From an uncultured Succinivibrio sp. (GTDB lineage: Bacteria > Pseudomonadota > Gammaproteobacteria > Enterobacterales > Succinivibrionaceae), in the NCBI GenBank assembly GCA_900754255.1, contig CAAECI010000094.1:365-64364 (forward strand): 64,000 bases of DNA. The letters run 5' to 3'. The notes below the pieces were generated by a model, which was given only the letters and a program-made list of their open reading frames with translations, did no database searches and was not told the DNA's origin. This document shows positions 37,006 through 46,702 of this stretch, one piece after another (within the stretch, counting starts at the first letter, position 1; every line of letters begins with the position of its first letter). The position numbers and the translations under genes were made by a program.

Positions 37006-38061
37006 TTAAGCGGCAGTGCAGCTTCCTTCTTCATCCTTACCCTTTTTGACGCCGCTCTTTGCTTTCTTAGCCTCACAAAGCTCGTCAGGCTCCAGCAAAG
37101 CGGCCGGAGCCTGACGCCCCATCAAGGCATCGTCATCAGATCCGTTTCCGAATATATCATTACAAATACGCATGACATATTCCCTTTCCTCCTTAGGCAA
37201 ACGCGCGGCAAAAGCAGTCTCCAGGGCCTTGGGCACCGAAAGACTTGCGCAGACGTTAAGCAACGAGGCTACTCTTACCAGAGATCGGGTGGAAAAGGGG
37301 GCAGATAATGAAGCGCGCCCCTGCTCGGGACACGAGGTATGTCTTAGCTCCTGCGCCAAATGCACCAACTTTTCAAATATTTCATCATCAAGCCTTGAGC
37401 AGCGTTTCTTTAGGATCCTAAGCTCTACTCTTTTTTCCGGATAACCGACCTCCACAAAACGCCAGCGATCAAGAAAGGCCTGATTAAGCTGTCTTGTACC
37501 GTTATAAAAGCCCATGGCATCTCCCATTCCCTTGGTATTGGCCGTAGCGATCACGCGGAAGAAAGGAGAAGGCTCAATGATTTCTCCATTGTTTTGAGTG
37601 ATGGTGAGAGCTCTGCCCTCAAGCACGTCATTTAAGGCCGCAAGCTCTCCAGGAGGCATAAGGTCGATCTCATTTAGGATCAGGATCTTCCCAAGATTCA
37701 TGGCCTCTACCAGAGGACCGTATTGATATACGAGTTCACCATGCCTTAGTGTGGCATGCCCCATAAGATCGAAGGCCTCGGTGCGTGAGGAAAGAGTCAA
37801 TTGCACAACCTCCCATCCAAGACGTGCCGCCGTTTGCAAGGCCATCGAGGTCTTACCGCAGCCTGCAGGTCCAGAAAGAAAAAGACAATCCTTTTGAGGA
37901 TAGGCCAAATACAGCAAAAGCTGATTCAATACCGGCAGGTCGAATATATAGTTCTCATCGATGGCGGGGGGATTGGTTATATCATCAGGATCCGGTATCG
38001 TCATACTCTCAAGGCACAAACGTGAGGATGCAAATATTTCTCTCAAATTTACTTCAGCCAT
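37006..38061 (-). CDS. AAA+ ATPase, MoxR/CbbQ/NorQ/CobS-like
   Basis: Walker A (SGPAGCGKTS), Walker B (ILILNEID) and the MoxR-type helix-2 insert region. Strong SD (GGAGG) before the ATG at 38061. 8-nt overlap (ATGGCTGA) with the upstream gene. Confidence 0.7.
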   Translation of the reverse strand: MAEVNLREIFASSRLCLESMTIPDPDDITNPPAIDENYIFDLPVLNQLLLYLAYPQKDCLFLSGPAGCGKTSMALQTAARLGWEVVQLTLSSRTEAFDLMGHATLRHGELVYQYGPLVEAMNLGKILILNEIDLMPPGELAALNDVLEGRALTITQNNGEIIEPSPFFRVIATANTKGMGDAMGFYNGTRQLNQAFLDRWRFVEVGYPEKRVELRILKKRCSRLDDEIFEKLVHLAQELRHTSCPEQGRASLSAPFSTRSLVRVASLLNVCASLSVPKALETAFAARLPKEEREYVMRICNDIFGNGSDDDALMGRQAPAALLEPDELCEAKKAKSGVKKGKDEEGSCTAA

Positions 38062-38437
38062 GCTGTACCTCCGTGAACACCGGATCCGGATCAACGTTTC
38101 TTGCAGGATCAGCTCCGACCTCACATATAGATTGAGCATTAACCTCGGTAATTTCAACGGATGTAAGATCTCGTCCCACAAAACAACGGCGACGCAGCTT
38201 ACCACTTATAAATAAGATCTTGCCCGCATGTATCATATCCATACAGCGACTGGCTAAATTGTTGTTTTGCGCATCTCTGACCGCTACATGAAGACGGGTG
38301 GAGGAAAAAGGACCGTCACCGGGATCGGGTGACGTTACCAGATCAAAAAAGATCATGCGTCCGTTCCTACCCTTATAGTATTTGATCTTAGGATCATCCA
38401 TGACCCTGCCTACCAGCATTACTTGATTGTTCGACAA
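38054..38437 (-). CDS. SSB-like OB-fold protein (no acidic C-terminal tail)
   Basis: N-terminal NQVMLVGRVMDDPKIKYYKGRNG resembles the SSB NKVILVGNLGQDPEVRY segment. TTG start with a perfect AAGGAG SD. Translationally coupled to the AAA+ gene. Confidence 0.5.
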   Translation of the reverse strand: MSNNQVMLVGRVMDDPKIKYYKGRNGRMIFFDLVTSPDPGDGPFSSTRLHVAVRDAQNNNLASRCMDMIHAGKILFISGKLRRRCFVGRDLTSVEITEVNAQSICEVGADPARNVDPDPVFTEVQHG

Positions 38438-38521: not shown

Positions 38522-38697
38522 AGCCATTTCTGATTTTTTTCTGGGCTTTTTAATAGTAAATAATTGCTTGTATAAACCATAGTCAACGCTCGCTTAATAT
38601 GGCATGACGGTCGACCTCGGCTTGTTTGTCTTTTCCTTGGTACAAAAACCTCAATAAAATGCGATCAAGACATAATGGAGTGACACGCAATATTCAG

Positions 38698-39903
38698 CTA
38701 TTTAAATCTTATTTGCAAATTCAAATTAAGATAGAATTTGTTGTTTTCGCAGTAGATAGTCATGAACTTATGCCTTTTCGCAGACGGACTTTCAAAACAC
38801 AAGTTTTCGTAAAGGTATTGTTTGAACTCCTCGGTCATACACGAATGTACTGCAACGATTTCGCCGTCATCCTTAACTACCACATATCCGCCGTTTACAG
38901 AAACTTTTCCGTTCCAAGGTTTACTCATACGCATGCCTGTAAACATATCAAACAGCAGATTTGAGATTTTTTTCTCATAAATGTATAAACAGTTGCTAAT
39001 CCCATAATCTGCATTTTCTGCGTCATGCTCAGAAACATATTCACAAGCTTCTTTAACCGAACTGTGTTCTTTCTTTGCCGAAGAATTAAAATAATAATAT
39101 TTAAGCAATGCTGCTGTAATACCTGGCAACTCCTTTCCGCCTGAGGTTATCAAATTTAACGCTGTGAATTCTCCGCAAGTTTTTTCAAAACGCAGATCGC
39201 AATTACTTTCTTTCAATAAATTCATTCGTTTACTGAACGAGGTAGATTTTTTTCCAGAGGAATCTGTATCCCACAAACAATTAAATGCTTCCATGATTTG
39301 TGCGTTACAGCCGATCACTTCGTACTGGAAATTCGTATTGTCGGCACTGGCATTAAAGAGCGTAGCCTTACCGGTTGGAAAGCTGGTTTTTATAGAATAA
39401 GCAAGCAGAGATTCCACACCTGTACGATAATCGGAAGCAAGAAAGTTGATGTCCGGCGTTCCACCGAAAAAACTCTTAGTCCCTTGTTGAGCAGGAGCCT
39501 TCAATTTCGTTACTTTTAGTTTGATTGCCAGAAACTTGCTGACATTACGGTCCTCAATACCCTCTTTGGGTTTTGCATTTTTGATCAAATCCCAGACTTT
39601 TTTTGCACACTTCTGAACGTCTTCAGACGAGACAAAACCGATGTCCAACTTTTCGTTTTCCGTTTTGTCCCAAACCGTATATGTGATATTTCTTGTTTTT
39701 TTATCTTCGTTATTGTGAGACGGTTCGTATTCAATCAGACGATTAGGAATTTCCTCTCGTAGAATTTTAAGAATGTTTAGATAAACTGCTTTATTAAGTT
39801 GCATCCCACTGTCCGCTGCGTACAGTTTTCCTTCATTCAAAATTTTTAAAAATACATATATTTCAGCCCATTCTCCGCGGTTTCCCGTTGTTATTTCCGT
39901 CAT
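38698..39903 (-). CDS. type II restriction endonuclease (HpaII-family-like), partner of the m5C MTase
   Basis: 4-bp overlap (ATGA) with the upstream MTase gene. N-terminal GEWAEIYVFLKIL...GKLYAAD resembles what I recall of the HpaII-type REase family (from memory, unverified). Confidence 0.5.
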   Translation of the reverse strand: MTEITTGNRGEWAEIYVFLKILNEGKLYAADSGMQLNKAVYLNILKILREEIPNRLIEYEPSHNNEDKKTRNITYTVWDKTENEKLDIGFVSSEDVQKCAKKVWDLIKNAKPKEGIEDRNVSKFLAIKLKVTKLKAPAQQGTKSFFGGTPDINFLASDYRTGVESLLAYSIKTSFPTGKATLFNASADNTNFQYEVIGCNAQIMEAFNCLWDTDSSGKKSTSFSKRMNLLKESNCDLRFEKTCGEFTALNLITSGGKELPGITAALLKYYYFNSSAKKEHSSVKEACEYVSEHDAENADYGISNCLYIYEKKISNLLFDMFTGMRMSKPWNGKVSVNGGYVVVKDDGEIVAVHSCMTEEFKQYLYENLCFESPSAKRHKFMTIYCENNKFYLNLNLQIRFK

Positions 39904-41003
39904 TTTAGAATCATCCTTATTTGATTAGCGATCGCCTCAATTACGGGAACCGTAACGCTGTTTCCGAATTGTTTATATAGGTGAGTATCAGCTAACACCA
40001 ATTTAAAATCATCGGGAAAGCCTTGCAGTCTGGCCCATTCTCTTGGAGTCATTTTTCTAATATCTTCCTTATTTATTACACCCTTAATGTGCGTAACCGG
40101 TGTCATGCTGTGCTCACGGTGATCTATAATCAAATTTCGTTCTCTTCCCATTCCGCCGCATACGATGGCTGAAGCTATTCCGTTCATATCTTTGATTTCG
40201 TAGCCGAATCCATGACCAAGAGCCTCGTGTCTGGCTTTATGACGCTTCAATGTCTCAACGTAAACATCTGAGAGGTAGTATTTTGAGGAAACCGGAGCTT
40301 TTTCCAGAATATCACTGATGCATGCTCTAATTCCGGTAGGAGTCGGAAATTTAAAAGAGGACGAATCCAAATCATCTCTGAAGGCGACTATATAAATTCG
40401 CTCCCTATTTTGCGGCACACCAAAGTCTTTACTATTCAGAACCTGAGAATAGACCCTGTACCCGATCTGTTCAAATGCCCCCCTGATAACTTTAAAAGTT
40501 CTGCCGCGGTCGTGTATAACCAGTCCCTTTACGTTTTCGCAAAAAATAACCTTTGGCTTGTGTTTGTCACAAATACGCACCACATCTTGAAACAAAGTAC
40601 CGCGGCACAATCCTTTGTAGTCGTCATTGAACCCCATACGCTTTCCTGCTAAAGAAAACGCCTGACACGGGAAACCAGCCAAACATATATCAAAGTCAGG
40701 AACGTCTTTTTCAGATATTTTTGTTATATCTCCACTGATCTCGAAAGGATCGTGAAAATTTGCGGTATAGGTTTTCTGTGCATATTTGTCCCATTCACTG
40801 ACAAATACAGTCTCTATGCTGTTGTTAAATGCTCTGTCGAAACCTATTCTGATCCCACCAATTCCAGCGAAGAGATCAACTGAACGAAAATTTTTTAATG
40901 AACTCACTGGTTTTAGACTCGTAAATAAAATGTGATATTGTACTTCTCTATATTGCCGTTTTCGGTATTTCAATAAACGATTCGTCCGAACGAAGCCATG
41001 CAT
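39900..41003 (-). CDS. DNA (cytosine-5)-methyltransferase
   Basis: Motifs I (DLFAGIGG), IV (GFPCQAFSLAGKR), VI (ENVKGL), VIII (QNRERIYIV), X (GNSVTVPV). Confidence 0.9.
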   Translation of the reverse strand: MHGFVRTNRLLKYRKRQYREVQYHILFTSLKPVSSLKNFRSVDLFAGIGGIRIGFDRAFNNSIETVFVSEWDKYAQKTYTANFHDPFEISGDITKISEKDVPDFDICLAGFPCQAFSLAGKRMGFNDDYKGLCRGTLFQDVVRICDKHKPKVIFCENVKGLVIHDRGRTFKVIRGAFEQIGYRVYSQVLNSKDFGVPQNRERIYIVAFRDDLDSSSFKFPTPTGIRACISDILEKAPVSSKYYLSDVYVETLKRHKARHEALGHGFGYEIKDMNGIASAIVCGGMGRERNLIIDHREHSMTPVTHIKGVINKEDIRKMTPREWARLQGFPDDFKLVLADTHLYKQFGNSVTVPVIEAIANQIRMILK

Positions 41004-41400
41004 TTAAAATGTCAACTGTCTTCTCTCTTTTAGATTTATTTGTCAACATGCAGGTCCAAACGACGGCAATTCTTAAACCGAGAGATAACAGTTGTCCTAT
41101 GACTTGAGCATCTCTCTTCTTATTTTTTTCTATTTTATCAATCCAAAAACCTCGATTTGTAGAAGGTAGCGAGGATTTTAAGCAATTTGCATGACCGTGC
41201 CAAAAGCATCCGTTTACCATCACGACGGCGTTGTATTTTTTAAAAAATAAATCGGGCGTACCTGGGAGACTTTTTACACAAGTCCGATAGCGATATCCCA
41301 TAGAAAACAACTTTTTTCTTATAAACATTTCAGGACCAGTATTTTTGGATCGAATGAGAGACATGTTCCTGCTTCTTTCTTTCTGATTTTTTGTATCCAT
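40948..41400 (-). CDS. vsr: very-short-patch repair endonuclease Vsr
   Basis: Vsr motifs (SLIRSKNTGPE, PGTPDL, NGCFWHGH, FW..K...N..RD). Overlaps the 5' end of the MTase gene. Confidence 0.85.
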   Translation of the reverse strand: MDTKNQKERSRNMSLIRSKNTGPEMFIRKKLFSMGYRYRTCVKSLPGTPDLFFKKYNAVVMVNGCFWHGHANCLKSSLPSTNRGFWIDKIEKNKKRDAQVIGQLLSLGLRIAVVWTCMLTNKSKREKTVDILNAWLRSDESFIEIPKTAI

Positions 41401-41698
41401 CTTTTCAATCCTCGATAAGTATAAGGTATGGATTTCCCTTCCCAAACCGAACCATGCGATTATACGTTTTGTATAACGCCTTTCTTAATTATTTCAAGAC
41501 AATCACATCAAGTACCGCAGACTGAACTTACGATTTATTAAAGACTTAATTCTTTACCTATATTTTCAAAATATCGCAAGCTTACTAAAAGTAAGTATAG
41601 TCAATATTTTAGCTATACTCAAAATATTGATAATATTTTTAAAATATTTATAATATATAAAGAATATTAATTTACACTTCTTTACAACACAAGGAATA

Positions 41699-41935
41699 GT
41701 GCAGATGAACGATACAGAATCCAAAAGAGAAAAATTTGTGAGGTTGGCTGAAGCAAGAACCAATAAGATTATTGATATGCTCAAGCTTTTAGGCAATTGC
41801 AGTAACTCAAATATATATGAGTACACGAAGGCGGATGTGGATAAAATTTTTTCAGCCATAGAAGCGGCAGTAAAATCTGCCAAACAGGGATATCTGATCA
41901 AAACAAACAATGAAGATGAAAGGTTCAAACTGTAA
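41699..41935 (+). CDS. small helical protein of unknown function (leader of the GHKL operon)
   Basis: 78-aa ORF directly upstream of the GHKL ATPase gene. Confidence 0.4.
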   Translation: MQMNDTESKREKFVRLAEARTNKIIDMLKLLGNCSNSNIYEYTKADVDKIFSAIEAAVKSAKQGYLIKTNNEDERFKL

Positions 41936-41957
41936 ATTAACTACAGGACGGTGCAGT

Positions 41958-43973
41958 ATGTACACAAATGATAATAAACAGCCGCAGTGGGATTTTCCTG
42001 GTTACCCATCAGGAAGCGGTCCTATTACTCAAGGACTTAACACGATAATACAGGATTCATTCAGAGAAAAACCTTTGGATTCATTAATTCGAGAGTGCTG
42101 TCAAAATTCATTGGATGCTTCGGCTAACAACGGAAAGCCCGTCAGAATAGAGTTTCATACTTTTGAAATGTTAACTTCCGATCTGCCGGGAATAGGCGCA
42201 CTGAAAAAGCATATAAAATCATGTCTTAACGGGGTGAATAAATCTAATAATGAGGGAACGAAAAATCCAGAAAAAATACTATACGAAACGGCAAATAGGA
42301 TATTAAACGACAGAAAATTGCTTTGTCTCAGGATAAGTGATTTCAACACTACCGGATTACCTGGGTCCAGAAAACCAAAAGATATTTATAAACTAACCCA
42401 ATGGTATAGATGTGTTGAAACAATGGGATGCTCAGGAGATAAAGAAAAATCGTCAGGGGGGTCCAAAGGAGTAGGTAAATCAACTGCATTTTATAATTCA
42501 GGCATCAGGACAGTGTTTTTTAATACCCTTGACCAAAACGGCGATGAAGCTTCAGAAGGAGTATCTTGGCAAACTTCACATTATGACAGCGATAATAATG
42601 AATGTACTCAGGGATTTTATGCTTGTAAAAATCAAGGTAGGAGACAAGCAATATATGCACAAACCATATTGGATAATTCATTTAAACGAAATGAACCTGG
42701 TACTGACCTCTTTATCATAGGTTTTAATCAAAATGAGAATGAATTCGGAGAAGATCATGATCTAGACACCGTCGTAAAGAATGTCGTAGTAGATTCTTTT
42801 TTACCCGCAATAAAAGCAGGTAATATAATTATCAAAACTGAAAGATCTGAAATAAGCCGTAATACATTACCTGATATCATAAAATATCTCTCATCCGAAG
42901 CCGTACCTAAGAAACGCATCAAACAAGCTAAATCCAACACTGAATTCAATTCAGTTATCGATTCTGAAATACCCGTAAATACATTAGAAACTGATAGCTT
43001 AGGTATAAAAGGGAAATTCGAAATCAAATTGCTTGCCAAGGATGATTACTGTAAAAAAATTGCCGTCTACCGAGAAATTGGCATGAAAATAAAAGAGTTT
43101 AAACCCAGAAAACCATTCGGCTTTGCCGGAGTATTAATAATAAAAGGTCCGGATTTAAATGAATTTATGAAAAACATGGAGACTAGCGCACATAATGACT
43201 GGCATCCAGATATCTATAATGCTGATAAAGAGCAGCTAAAAATTGCAAAACAAATAAAGGACAAACTAACTTATTTTGTTAAAGAATGTGTTGAAAATAT
43301 AAAAACCGAAACAAACAGCGATGATAAAATTGATTCAGGACTCGGAGCTTTATTTCCTGATTCCAATGATTCTTTAAAAACAAAAGGTGAATCTGTTTTC
43401 GGATTGGATCAGTTTGAGGATAAAAAGGAGTTTATTTTTAAAAATTCTTTATCAAACAAAGAAAACACTGTCAGTTATAAAAAAAATGATAAAGAACCCA
43501 ACAAAATATCAATAGATAAAAATGGCGATATAAATGATAAAGAATTCAGATCGACGACGAAAAGAAAAAAAAGCTCACATGATAGGACAGAATCCATCAG
43601 TCCCAACAATACTACGAACAAAGATAATCTTAATAAAGAAATCGAATCAAAGTTCGAAACAGTAAAAGTGAATCTGTCAAATATAAAATTCATTCCATTG
43701 GACAATGAAGGATTCAAATTTAGAGTGAGTTTCATTCCTGAAGTAGGCTATAAAACGGCAATGATTCGATTTAATGTGGCTGGTGAAACTACTGATTATT
43801 CATTACCGATCGCTTATGCAGAAAATGACAAAGGTCCTATTACAATTGAAAAAAACAGTATTTTGTTCGGCGTTCGCCTTACTAGGAATAAACCGTACTC
43901 TTTGGTAATAAAGTTGGAAGATAATACATTCAAATCTTTTTCGGTGGTTGTAGATGCTTATAAGAAAAAATAG
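41958..43973 (+). CDS. GHKL-superfamily (HATPase_c; Hsp90/MORC-like) ATPase protein, ~671 aa, with a large uncharacterised C-terminal region
   Basis: Bergerat-fold motifs: N-box LIRECCQNSLDA (ExxxNSxDA); motif II-like LRISDFNTTGLPGS; G2-box GGSKGVGKSTAFYNS (compare Hsp90 GVGFYSAF). Start at the ATG with an AGGA RBS. Confidence 0.65.
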   Translation: MYTNDNKQPQWDFPGYPSGSGPITQGLNTIIQDSFREKPLDSLIRECCQNSLDASANNGKPVRIEFHTFEMLTSDLPGIGALKKHIKSCLNGVNKSNNEGTKNPEKILYETANRILNDRKLLCLRISDFNTTGLPGSRKPKDIYKLTQWYRCVETMGCSGDKEKSSGGSKGVGKSTAFYNSGIRTVFFNTLDQNGDEASEGVSWQTSHYDSDNNECTQGFYACKNQGRRQAIYAQTILDNSFKRNEPGTDLFIIGFNQNENEFGEDHDLDTVVKNVVVDSFLPAIKAGNIIIKTERSEISRNTLPDIIKYLSSEAVPKKRIKQAKSNTEFNSVIDSEIPVNTLETDSLGIKGKFEIKLLAKDDYCKKIAVYREIGMKIKEFKPRKPFGFAGVLIIKGPDLNEFMKNMETSAHNDWHPDIYNADKEQLKIAKQIKDKLTYFVKECVENIKTETNSDDKIDSGLGALFPDSNDSLKTKGESVFGLDQFEDKKEFIFKNSLSNKENTVSYKKNDKEPNKISIDKNGDINDKEFRSTTKRKKSSHDRTESISPNNTTNKDNLNKEIESKFETVKVNLSNIKFIPLDNEGFKFRVSFIPEVGYKTAMIRFNVAGETTDYSLPIAYAENDKGPITIEKNSILFGVRLTRNKPYSLVIKLEDNTFKSFSVVVDAYKKK

Positions 43974-44313
43974 ATTATTTGCTTATCCTGTTTTAAATGA
44001 TCTTAATAAAAATTACAAAAAAGGAAAATTTAGTGCAGAACTTATTGATAAAAGTTTCGGAGATTATTATGTTTTTGATTGTCATTGCGAACTAGAAAAT
44101 AATAAAAGCATAGAAGCACTTATAAACGAAAGCAAGTGCCTTTATACTTGTTTAGTTGAATGTGGAAAAACGAAATACAGATATCTGTACAGCAGTAAGA
44201 CCCCTATTTTTGAAATAAAGATAAAGAAAACGGAATTATGCGGGCATGTTGAATTTTCTATTAATATAGTTGCCACAAAAAAAAAATACAAAATTTTTCG
44301 TCACCTGATTTAG
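43954..44313 (+). CDS. hypothetical Cys-rich protein. Possibly the 5' part of a gene split by a frameshift at an A10 tract.
   Basis: Overlaps the GHKL gene by 20 nt. Contains CHC...C..C..C. Ends 35 nt after an A10 run. Confidence 0.4.
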   Translation: MLIRKNRLFAYPVLNDLNKNYKKGKFSAELIDKSFGDYYVFDCHCELENNKSIEALINESKCLYTCLVECGKTKYRYLYSSKTPIFEIKIKKTELCGHVEFSINIVATKKKYKIFRHLI

Positions 44314-44378
44314 GCGAAGATTACTCCGGAAGATTAATAAACTTTGACGAGGGATCATTTATTGCTATCGGCCCCCAG

Positions 44379-44855
44379 TTGAGTGAAAATTTTCCCATGC
44401 TTAATGACAGCACTTTTGGGAAAAACAACTCTTTTATCAAAATACAACGTTGTATTAATCCAGATCCATCAATGAGTGTTGATTGGGACGATAATAATAT
44501 TACCATCTATTTATTTAACGATATATATCAATCATATTTAAAATACAAAGACCACAAAAATGTATTTAATCTCCTTATCCAGATGATAGTTGTTCCTGCC
44601 CTTATGGATGTTTTTTCAAAAATCGGCAGTGAATTAAATCATGATTTAATTAGTCCCGATTCCACTAAATGGTACCAAACAATAGATCGTCAATATAAAA
44701 AAGAAAGAAGCAATCGATGTCTGAAGGATGATATAGAATCAGATTCATCCTGTTTGACCATTGTACAAGATATTTTGAAACAACCTTTACGATGTGCTGT
44801 AAATTCTTTAGATGATCTCTTAATTTCTTTTGAAGGCGAGGATATGAATGAATAA
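44379..44855 (+). CDS. hypothetical protein. Frame is open upstream back to 44265.
   Basis: TTG/ATG starts. The reading frame overlaps the preceding ORF across the A10 tract. Confidence 0.4.
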   Translation: MSENFPMLNDSTFGKNNSFIKIQRCINPDPSMSVDWDDNNITIYLFNDIYQSYLKYKDHKNVFNLLIQMIVVPALMDVFSKIGSELNHDLISPDSTKWYQTIDRQYKKERSNRCLKDDIESDSSCLTIVQDILKQPLRCAVNSLDDLLISFEGEDMNE

Positions 44856-45633
44856 TCTAATTTATTTTAAAAGAGAAACGGTAGGAATAATTAAACATGA
44901 TTTAAAATTTATTCTTAATATTTTTTTTACAAATAATCCAATAGAAGAATTGGAGAAAAAATACGGGGAAATAATGGCGTATAAAACCTCCTTTTCATGC
45001 TCTGATTTCTCACTCCTTAAAGATAACGGAGAATGTGTTGGAGATCTGGAAGCCGTAAAACTTGTCCAAGATAAAATGGGGAACATGCCTGCCGCTTTGG
45101 CCTCTGAGGAAGGAATGTGGTCGGCATTAAGCCTTTCCGAACAGTTTTGGCCATATGTTAGAAAAAGATGGTTTATTCCTGCTTTGGAGAGACACTGCAA
45201 CACTAAAGAACCACCTATAAATATGGAACAGAAGGATAAAATATCACAATGGTTGCTTGCCAGAATTTTTTTTGAAAACTATCGCATTACTCGCCATGTT
45301 TTAGCCAGACTGTGGTGGATTGGCAAAATGACCTTTGTTGAAGGAGAAGATCCTTATAAACTTACGACCTTTGTCATGCGCAGTGAAGCATTAGTCACTG
45401 CAATATTCGAACGCAGTCAGGGATCGAACAGGACGCTGGTAAGAAATCTATGTTTCGAATTAATGAAAAGAGAAAAAAACGGAGAGTTAACGGTTAATCA
45501 GAATCTGATAAGAGAACTGTTCAAATATGTTAACGCTTGCGGCGGAGGCATATTGATAGACGAGGTGGCAAACAATCCTGATTCATTATCATTTTTAATG
45601 GATGCATTTTTAAAATGGTATAGACGCCGATGA
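44848..45633 (+). CDS. hypothetical protein (261 aa), last gene of the GHKL operon
   Basis: 8-nt overlap with the preceding ORF; no recognisable motif. Confidence 0.5.
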   Translation: MNNLIYFKRETVGIIKHDLKFILNIFFTNNPIEELEKKYGEIMAYKTSFSCSDFSLLKDNGECVGDLEAVKLVQDKMGNMPAALASEEGMWSALSLSEQFWPYVRKRWFIPALERHCNTKEPPINMEQKDKISQWLLARIFFENYRITRHVLARLWWIGKMTFVEGEDPYKLTTFVMRSEALVTAIFERSQGSNRTLVRNLCFELMKREKNGELTVNQNLIRELFKYVNACGGGILIDEVANNPDSLSFLMDAFLKWYRRR

Positions 45634-45881
45634 CTTATCAAAGAAGCGGCAGTTTATCTTCGATGAGGGTTAAATCTCACCAAAAATGACAGCTGGATGC
45701 AAAAAAACATGCCTATGCTGTAAAATTCACTCCAATGCTCAGATTTTTCTTAATTACTTGATTATTTTTTATTAAAGAAAATGAAGTTAAACAAAGTGCC
45801 TAGTTGCGCCTTGGCAAAGCGGAGATCAATTCGTCTGAAGTCTCCGCCCCTTTAGCAACGAAAATAAATCAGGACAATATA

Positions 45882-46352
45882 ATGCTTTACACCTTTAAAA
45901 TTTATCCCTCCGGTTGGGGCCGGATCGCCTACCGGGTGATGGAAGTAGGCGGAGACAAATCCTTCGACAGCTTGGCAATGGATATTCTGGCCGCATTTAA
46001 CTTTGGCTGCAATCATCTGTATGAATTCAGAAACACATTAGGAAGATCCGACCGTAGCATTATATTTAATCCCAACTACGACAATTTTAATCCGCTCTTG
46101 GGGTTTATCGGTGGAAACGACAGCGACACTGCCGACGAATATAACGATCCCTGTCCAGACCGCAGACATTATGACAGCCGCAGACCGATTAAATTCCTAA
46201 ATCCGGAAAAAAGTTCAAAATTTTATTTTCATTATGATTTCTGTGATGATTGGATTTTTGTCATCCATGTCTCCAAAGTAGAGGCCGATAAGCCATCACC
46301 TGATCACTCAAATGTCATTAAAAGCGTCGGGAAAGTAGGAGGCCGATATTAA
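45882..46352 (+). CDS. pRiA4b ORF-3-like (IS1096 TnpR-passenger-like) family protein
   Basis: N-terminal MLYTFKIYPSGWGRIAYRVMEV...HLYEF matches the pRiA4_ORF3 domain pattern (Y.lKV.L.g..PpIWRR..V...HLyeF). Confidence 0.55.
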   Translation: MLYTFKIYPSGWGRIAYRVMEVGGDKSFDSLAMDILAAFNFGCNHLYEFRNTLGRSDRSIIFNPNYDNFNPLLGFIGGNDSDTADEYNDPCPDRRHYDSRRPIKFLNPEKSSKFYFHYDFCDDWIFVIHVSKVEADKPSPDHSNVIKSVGKVGGRY

Positions 46353-46410
46353 AGCGAGGTTGAGGGATAAGCTCTTCGTTTAAGACACCGGCAGATTTAT
46401 GATGCCGAAG

Positions 46411-46438
46411 AAGCGGCTTTAAAATGTCCGCTTTTTTA
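46411..46438 (+). terminator. rho-independent terminator
   Basis: AAGCGG-loop-CCGCTT plus T6. Confidence 0.5.
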
Positions 46439-46514
46439 TTTAAGCACACGTTATAGAAAGTTCCGGGGCCTAAGGGCCGGCTATGCCGTCCATACTTTGC
46501 TCCGAGGCTGCACA

Positions 46515-46540
46515 CATAAAAAAGACGCCTTTACGGCGCC
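46515..46540 (-). terminator. terminator downstream of tRNA-Arg(CCT)
   Basis: Minus strand GGCGCC-GTAAA-GGCGTC followed by TTTTTTAT. Confidence 0.5.
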
Positions 46541-46543
46541 CTG

Positions 46544-46618
46544 TGGCGACCCCAGTAGGAATCGAACCTACAACTAGCCCTTAGGAGGGGCTTGTTATAT
46601 CCATTTAACTATGAGGTC
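46544..46618 (-). tRNA. tRNA-Arg (anticodon CCT)
   Basis: Reverse complement GACCTCA-TA-GTTA..TAAC-A-AGCCC-CTCCTAA-GGGCT-AGTT-GTAGG-TTCGATT-CCTAC-TGGGGTC-G-CCA. Confidence 0.85.
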
Positions 46619-46702
46619 AACGCACGGCATTATAGCAATTTTCGTGCGCTTCTTCCAAAAAATGGCTTTGGCCTCCACAAAATTTAGTTCTAATGAAAAA
46701 AA

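Follow-up and report, generated by a model that had tools for sequence, protein, structure and literature searches.

Introduction

What is the function of a compact group of genes that lies beside, and on the opposite strand from, a type II restriction-modification cassette in an uncultured Succinivibrio species? The genes occupy positions 41446-45633 of a 64,000-nucleotide stretch of contig CAAECI010000094.1 (GenBank assembly GCA_900754255.1), which we refer to as the window and to which all coordinates below belong unless another locus is named. The original prediction, made from the letters of this DNA, held that the region encodes a five-gene operon built around an uncharacterised GHKL ATPase, and that this operon is a candidate novel anti-phage defence module. 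Our analysis leads to a modified answer. The operon consists of four genes, here called S, A, B and C, and the A, B and C products match PDC-M33, a family already catalogued as a defence candidate. We favor the interpretation, to which we assign a probability of roughly 60%, that this PDC-M33-family operon, with its paraMORC2-type ATPase, acts as a restriction module that is linked to DNA methylation and switched by a poly-A tract.

A four-gene operon of the PDC-M33 family

All five of the predicted open reading frames (ORFs), coding for 78, 671, 119, 158 and 261 amino acids, are present on the + strand, and the region is indeed poor in G+C (30-41%, versus ~50% in the flanks). Gene S (41699-41935) is followed by A (41958-43973), whose product has 671 residues, or 687 if translation begins at an alternative upstream ATG at 41910. 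The 119-amino-acid ORF (43954-44313) and the 158-amino-acid ORF (44379-44855) are read in different frames, and the last gene, C (44848-45633), encodes the 261-amino-acid protein. The stops and starts of these genes had been described as overlapping, which holds for the junction between A and the 119-amino-acid ORF (20 nucleotides) and for the junction with C (8 nucleotides). The 119- and 158-amino-acid ORFs, however, are separated by 65 nucleotides.

These two ORFs are the halves of a single gene, B. Adding one nucleotide to a run of ten A nucleotides (A10; 44277-44286, + strand), which is the site of a frameshift, yields a single B ORF of 301 amino acids. This reconstructed protein aligns end to end with the single ORF that directly follows A in 78 of the 80 related loci that were fetched, and the B homologue is a single ORF of 258-319 amino acids in 74 of them. 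The 119-amino-acid product represents the N-terminal domain of B, cut off by an out-of-frame stop past the poly-A run. The 3′ part of the gene (44287-44855, + strand) lies in a frame that is open from 44274 and that continues B in-frame in alleles of the same island carrying A8 or A11; the 158-amino-acid ORF is this 3′ part read from a TTG at 44379. The frameshift was overlooked by the original prediction, and its count of five genes must be reduced to four.

Each of the three larger genes corresponds to a profile in PADLOC. Protein A matches PDC-M33A (E = 1.2e-123) over profile positions 4-625 of 627, and C matches PDC-M33C (E = 9e-38). The single profile PDC-M33B, which has 289 positions, is matched at 4-108 by the 119-amino-acid product and at 148-283 by the 158-amino-acid product, such that the frameshift divides this match over two ORFs; island alleles with A8 or A11 carry an intact B. 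The three genes lie in the order A, B, C on one strand, the same order and strand as in the PDC-M33 model. By these profile matches, the cassette is PDC-M33, which is one of 145 ‘phage defence candidates’ that derive from genes lying inside BREX, DISARM and type I restriction-modification systems (Payne et al., bioRxiv 10.1101/2024.01.29.577857). The statement that the cassette resembles no named system is partly wrong, as A, B and C match the models of this catalogued candidate. The claim of novelty is lost, as A-B-C is already in PADLOC and the ATPase fits paraMORC2 as that family is portrayed in the passages of PMC2292703 on which we draw. The PDC-M33 model does differ from the locus described here, in that it comprises three genes without assigned domains and leaves out S, the operator and the link to methylases, and B is frameshifted in the window. 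In the literature searched, no description was found of the operator upstream of S, of the operon types coupled to a methylase or of the putative poly-A switching, and these features therefore appear to be new.

Searches of Pfam, NCBIfam and PHROGs with S, A and the 119- and 158-amino-acid products gave no match, and PDB sequences searched with profiles of all four proteins yielded only noise. Loose-threshold Pfam scans of all members of the B and S alignments likewise produced scattered chance matches only. The proteins downstream of A had been described as lacking recognisable domains, which is borne out in Pfam for the halves of B but not for C, a DUF6339 protein (PF19866, E = 2e-30). Gene C is present after B in 71 of the 80 loci, and one longer relative of C has a single, weak, sub-threshold match to Pfam HTH_6 in a C-terminal extension. 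A homologue search with a fused B+C query found no matches, and a single-sequence AlphaFold2 model of C was discarded because of its predicted local distance difference test score (pLDDT) of 44.

Protein A resembles paraMORC2 ATPases

The assignment of the 671-amino-acid protein to the GHKL (Bergerat) class is well founded. The motifs LIRECCQNSLDA and GGSKGVGKSTAFYN are present in A, and both fall on invariant columns of an alignment of 62 family sequences. Residues that are invariant in this alignment include N50, D53, A54, D128, G133, the series G168-S169-G171-G173-K174, and G248-T249-D250, while E46 is kept in at least 90% of the members and a further segment, R372-G375-M376-K377, is conserved. 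An AlphaFold model (pLDDT 78.9) contains a GHKL domain, an S5/transducer domain after it, a long helix, a disordered linker rich in K, D, S and N (residues 455-563) and a C-terminal beta-sandwich (residues 566-670). Foldseek matches of this model include GyrB, TopoVI-B, MORC3/4, MLH1, SMCHD1 and MutL (E = 1e-8 to 1e-4). Directly past the last S5 helix of the model lie E408 and H412, which form an ExxxH motif that is invariant in the 62 sequences.

An ExxxH motif conserved where S5 ends has been given as the hallmark of paraMORC2, a family that was predicted in 2008 to act in restriction-modification systems (Iyer, Abhiman and Aravind; PMC2292703). In the passages of that report used here, paraMORC2 proteins are mostly Gram-positive and cyanobacterial, and are linked to cytosine methylases, Vsr and helicases. 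The A family shares with them the GHKL domain with its ATP motifs and the S5 domain, the ExxxH motif, a patchy and mainly Gram-positive spread, and neighbourhoods with cytosine methylases, Vsr and superfamily 2 (SF2) helicases, whereas partners equivalent to B, C and S are not described in those passages. Because of its motif, architecture, distribution and context, with the published members compared by description, A fits a paraMORC2-type GHKL+S5 ATPase whose ATP site appears to be intact.

More distant relatives are set apart from A in several ways. The N-terminal ATPase modules of eukaryotic MORC3, MORC2 and SMCHD1 and of bacterial MutL are 11-14% identical to A, and the C-terminal parts of these proteins are unlike that of A. 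Furthermore, the MORC-specific S5 motif GhXhhpXXRhl is absent from all 62 members of the A family, and A has no match to Pfam HATPase_c_3 at E values up to 0.1. A useful comparison is provided by the validated protein VcSduA (Shedu type I-D, or paraMORC3), a prokaryotic MORC-related GHKL ATPase whose anti-phage activity requires the GHKL glutamate (PMC12137116); ATPases of this class thus have a precedent as defence proteins. VcSduA is one protein with a fused DUF4263 PD-(D/E)xK nuclease (PMC12137116), whereas A, B and C are separate proteins, and none of these three has a DUF4263 or Shedu match in Pfam or PADLOC. We also considered a split histidine kinase in which S would serve as a DHp-like hairpin. 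This was rejected because S has no conserved histidine and because the S5 domain of A is that of the gyrase/MutL/MORC clade.

Relatives of the operon often lie near C5 cytosine methylases

Homologues of A make up more than 1,100 protein clusters, and relatives occur in 442 of 185,579 species genomes. The carriers are mostly Bacillota, with others among Veillonella, Leptotrichia, Treponema, Bacteroidales and some archaea. The order A-B-C is kept in the 80 related loci, which come from many phyla.

A link to restriction-modification had been proposed. It proves to be real and to be specific to C5 cytosine methylases. Among 99 nearest-neighbour proteins from 33 loci, the top Pfam family is C5 DNA_methylase (13 proteins), and no adenine-methylase family is among the recurrent families listed for these neighbours. 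When the loci were searched by tblastn, a C5 methylase was found within 10 kb in 41 of the 80, and in 30 of the 47 that are at least 15 kb long; Vsr was found in 9 of the 80. A methylase of ~530 amino acids recurs in two positions: in 13 loci it is convergent to C at a distance of 35-46 bp, and in 7 loci it immediately precedes S on the same strand. The latter arrangement is a compact operon with the order (Vsr)-methylase-S-A-B-C-large protein-(Vsr). In several of the methylase-cassette modules, no recurrent restriction-enzyme gene family was seen alongside in flanks that had been clustered rather than scanned for domains.

The coupling is strongest where S is present: a methylase occurs in 30 of 43 loci with S but in 8 of 37 others (Fisher p = 2e-5, without correction for common descent). 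A second subtype, which is without S, is accompanied by a PLD-SF2 helicase-DUF3427 protein (9 loci). In 19 of the 80 loci, the gene for the large protein (925-1105 amino acids; cluster 4, e.g. L079:13461-16256) follows C at a distance of 0-28 bp. The first third of this protein contains RNA_pol_A_CTD/HhH and Sigma70_r4 domains, and ~600 residues are without assigned function. One subtype may thus have it as a fifth component; it is absent from the window.

Protein S and its putative operator

The likelier start of S is an ATG at 41705, which has an AGGA sequence 8-9 nucleotides upstream and gives a protein of 76 amino acids; the other start is a GTG at 41699 (78 amino acids). The protein is predicted from its sequence to be mostly helical, and searches of Pfam, PHROG, PADLOC and the PDB found no match. 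Its homologues include 2207 clusters at 60-74% identity, none with a Pfam domain, and clustering at 50% identity gives 4,334 representatives of the family, among them N-terminal domains of longer proteins. S is strikingly uniform, with a mean column identity of 70% and an identity across phyla of 60-74%, versus ~28% for A. The S gene immediately precedes A in 43 of the 76 loci for which upstream sequence is available.

A predicted promoter for the operon, together with a putative operator, lies at 41627-41668 on the + strand, as judged by a promoter scan (score 11 of 12) and by repeat counts. The -35 box (TTGATA, 41627-41632) and the -10 box (TATAAT, 41649-41654) are separated by a spacer that is filled by the palindromic unit AATATTTTTAAAATATT (41632-41648). 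This exact unit occurs once in the window, and a second unit with one mismatch (41652-41668) follows 20 bp after the first. The same pattern is evident in the relatives. Within 1.43 Mb of related loci, 26 of the 28 exact AATATT-N5-AATATT units lie within 180 nucleotides upstream of an S gene, and units with no more than one mismatch are found in 27 of 47 non-redundant regions upstream of S versus 8 of 906 other upstream regions of the same loci. The AATATT hexamer is 3.3-fold more frequent upstream of S genes than in dinucleotide shuffles, with spacing peaks at 11, 20 and 31 bp.

Other sets of effector genes are also headed by S. One module combines it with a protein of 766-768 amino acids, which has GHKL-like G1 and G2 boxes by a weak hhalign match, and with a protein of 253-254 amino acids, neither of which is in PADLOC. 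This second effector set repeats the design of the first, in the order methylase-S-GHKL-like-254 amino acids. The 253-amino-acid partner was examined as a candidate relative of B or C and was rejected, as it is not detectably related to either. Another module joins S to an HNH protein. A second copy of S stands ~9.6 kb from the first in two loci, where it is followed either by a 262-amino-acid HNH protein and an 81-amino-acid protein (L026:11078-12388) or by the 81-amino-acid protein only (L045:19410-19897). These second copies are divergent from a fused C5 methylase-NgoFVII gene.

From these sequence features, S is probably a controller-like autoregulator. It resembles the C proteins of type II restriction-modification systems, and their C-boxes, in that a small protein heads a putative restriction operon, palindromes cover its own promoter, and the gene is kept across different effector sets. 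The upstream position and the palindromic operator are those expected of a C protein. S differs from C proteins in having no match to the Xre-type helix-turn-helix (HTH) family (Xre/HTH_3) or other known DNA-binding domain, and no HTH family appeared among the Pfam matches of 70 members at E values up to 10. Together, S and the operator may constitute a portable regulatory module that is common to several effector sets, some of them outside PADLOC.

A poly-A tract with in-frame and out-of-frame alleles

The A10 run in B is the longest homopolymer in the window. By chance, a run of this length would be expected 0.15 times in the operon, and a run of eight A nucleotides about once. Other public assemblies contain the same island at 99.8-99.9% identity, and they differ in the length of the tract at the DNA level: A8 in L082, A9 in L101-L103, A10 in the window and in L081, and A11 in L099 and L100. 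Two of these lengths are in-frame, with A8 giving a B protein of 299 amino acids (8 contigs) and A11 one of 300 amino acids (4 contigs). The other two are out-of-frame, with A9 giving a product of 117 amino acids (2-3 contigs) and A10 giving the 119-amino-acid product (6 public contigs). Since A10 is an out-of-frame length, full-length B is not made from the window copy.

We read the tract as a slippage-prone ON/OFF switch of B, with the window captured in the OFF state. For cloning, an A8 or A11 allele would be preferable, such as those in sample ERR5192228 or assembly GCA_900526655.1. Contingency loci of phase-variable restriction-modification and defence systems share with B a homopolymer inside the ORF whose length varies among near-identical strains, toggling the reading frame between in- and out-of-frame states. 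One difference is that the tract in B, with its putative switching, is not conserved in the wider family.

Inactivation of B by another route is seen in a second lineage, where one of five sister contigs (L088) has a GGA-to-TGA nonsense codon in B. This lineage, from another gut species, carries an S-A-B-C cassette with an A protein that is 43-44% identical to that of the window (L088:8248-9135 and L088-L092:4629-5803), and the cassette adjoins SieB, a Dcm methylase and an EcoRII gene that is broken into N- and C-terminal fragments. In one public contig, whose product (P0440) falls in the same B cluster as that of window 43954-44313, a frameshift upstream of the poly-A tract changes ELCGHVEF to ELCGMLNF. 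This change fits the loss of one G from a GGG run and may be either genuine or due to faulty sequencing.

Genomic setting and mobility

As had been predicted, a Vsr-methylase-restriction enzyme cassette lies upstream on the - strand. It encodes Vsr (40948-41445), a C5 cytosine methylase (39900-41003) and a restriction enzyme of the HpaII type (38698-39903), all identified by Pfam, NCBIfam and PADLOC matches. This type II restriction-modification cassette (38698-41445) is divergent from S. A gene with a PRiA4_ORF3 domain (PF07929; 45804-46352), located downstream of C, marks the other end of the island, and a tblastn search gave no sign of a link between this gene and the cassette (0 matches in the 80 related loci).

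The sister strain L094, of the same species, aligns with the window up to 38540 and then again from 46346/46688 onward. The restriction-modification cassette, S-A-B-C and the PRiA4_ORF3 gene therefore belong to an island, at approximately 38541-46345, that differs between strains. In L094 this island is absent and the slot is occupied by a TnpB element, which comprises an IS605-type TnpB (Cas12f1-like_TNB) gene between flgT/tRNA-Arg and an SSB/AAA gene pair (L094:11499-12782). Next to this TnpB gene is a duplicate of ~350 bp of the window (46346-46692). The slot in L094 also contains a 78-amino-acid ORF, which was considered as a relative of S and rejected as unrelated. A tRNA-Arg(CCT) gene (46544-46618, - strand) stands at the edge of the variable slot, which is likely to be an integration hotspot, and no integrase gene was noticed among the island ORFs examined. 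The island is flanked by flagellar genes, with cheV, flgA and flgM on one side and flgT, flgO and flgN on the other. A CobS-like AAA+ ATPase (AAA_5/CbbQ_C; best PHROG ‘porphyrin biosynthesis’, E = 3.5e-56) and a small SSB-like protein are encoded on the - strand in the interval that separates flgM from the island (37006-38437), and this pair is also present in the island-free sister strain.

Relatives of the cassette are found on 21 plasmids and in 2 phage records. On a conjugative plasmid of Lactococcus lactis, A-B-C is flanked by an AlwI-family restriction enzyme on one side and by AbiGI/GII on the other. In a temperate phage of Clostridium innocuum, S-A-B-C adjoins the integrase and has a C5 methylase nearby. 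The location of the window copy in a strain-variable island beside a tRNA gene, and the company that relatives keep with AbiG, a restriction enzyme and a phage integrase, make S-A-B-C a plausible defence module, in agreement with the original prediction.

Discussion

How might such a module operate? We propose that S would bind the AATATT-N5-AATATT units over its own promoter and limit expression of the operon, as the controller proteins of restriction-modification systems do. On binding ATP, A would dimerise and clamp or loop DNA in the manner of MORC, MutL and GyrB proteins, and B and C would provide DNA recognition and a damaging activity. The neighbouring 5-methylcytosine methylase, which is the HpaII-type enzyme in the window, would mark host DNA as self, and under this proposal the module would represent an ATP-dependent restriction arm directed against incoming DNA that lacks methylation. 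Slippage in the poly-A tract would turn this costly module on or off.

Several observations weigh against this interpretation. No C5 methylase is present in the DNA examined for 39 of the 80 loci, some of which have other partners (PLD-helicase-DUF3427, 9 loci), and all counts over the 80 loci concern loci that share ancestry and are not independent events. In the window, the methylase is already paired with an HpaII-type restriction enzyme, so that a second restriction arm is unnecessary. A Pfam scan of 70 members and a PDB sequence search revealed no recognisable DNA-binding domain in S, and no nuclease or other catalytic domain was found in B or C with Pfam, NCBIfam, PHROGs and PDB profile searches. 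Runs of at least eight A nucleotides are present in only 2 of 74 other B genes, indicating that any phase variation is local, and part of the variation in tract length could be due to assembly error. Finally, the literature on PDC-M33, DUF6339 and GHKL defence yielded no experimental work on this family.

Some of these observations would be expected if the operon provided defence that is independent of methylation, perhaps of an abortive infection or toxin type triggered by a phage cue, with C5 methylase genes nearby simply because islands and mobile elements are shared. Such a system would not need the methylase that 39 loci lack or that in the window already serves another enzyme, and it would be at home on the Lactococcus plasmid between AlwI and AbiG, where an incomplete gene table shows no C5 methylase in the vicinity. 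The repeated inactivation of B, by the poly-A frameshift here and by the nonsense codon in L088, also fits a toxic effector. Mere sharing of islands, however, sits poorly with a methylase position that is fixed and very close to the cassette while the outer flanks vary, with C5 methylases as the only strongly recurrent neighbour family, and with the enrichment of methylases at S-bearing loci. We therefore consider this explanation unlikely, while regarding it as the most credible of the competitors. An ATPase that instead aids DNA repair, with A as a MutL-like partner of Vsr at T:G mismatches arising from deamination of 5-methylcytosine, seems highly improbable, as Vsr is present in only 9 of the 80 loci, many loci are without a methylase, and plasmid and phage copies of the cassette are found in the company of Abi and restriction genes. 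Phase variation or repeated inactivation would also not be expected of a repair helper.

A different concern is that the window copy might be a decaying remnant, and that the A10 frameshift reflects ordinary pseudogenisation or an assembly error rather than regulated phase variation. B is split both in the window and in L081, the latter having ~4x coverage according to its contig name. Moreover, B does not carry poly-A tracts throughout the family, and a run of A8 would be expected about once per operon in such AT-rich sequence. Against decay stand the rarity by chance of a run as long as A10 and the intact state of A, C and S, which retain all invariant residues. Four tract lengths, covering both in-frame and both out-of-frame states, are also seen in independent samples that are otherwise 99.8-99.9% identical. 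On balance, decay or error strikes us as an improbable account of the locus, and we continue to favor a methylation-linked restriction module that is switched by its poly-A tract.

A bolder proposal extends beyond this operon. Cassettes led by S, in which a methylase and S are combined with a GHKL ATPase and with B and C or other partners, could constitute a widespread and undescribed class of ATP-dependent restriction-modification system based on 5-methylcytosine. S would be a new family of controller protein that recognises AATATT-N5-AATATT operators, and in the present gut bacterium a poly-A tract in B would switch the system on and off. We advance this proposal tentatively, at odds somewhat short of even. 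If it is true, it would reveal a prokaryotic MORC-type ATPase that reads, or acts together with, cytosine methylation, a relationship that invites comparison with the eukaryotic MORCs, which are linked to silencing based on DNA methylation.

The family examined here has been predicted twice by comparative genomics, as paraMORC2 in 2008 and as PDC-M33 in 2024. If its members do carry out methylation-linked restriction by means of a MORC-like clamp, this would show a role for MORC-type ATPases that preceded their recruitment by eukaryotes to methylation-linked silencing.

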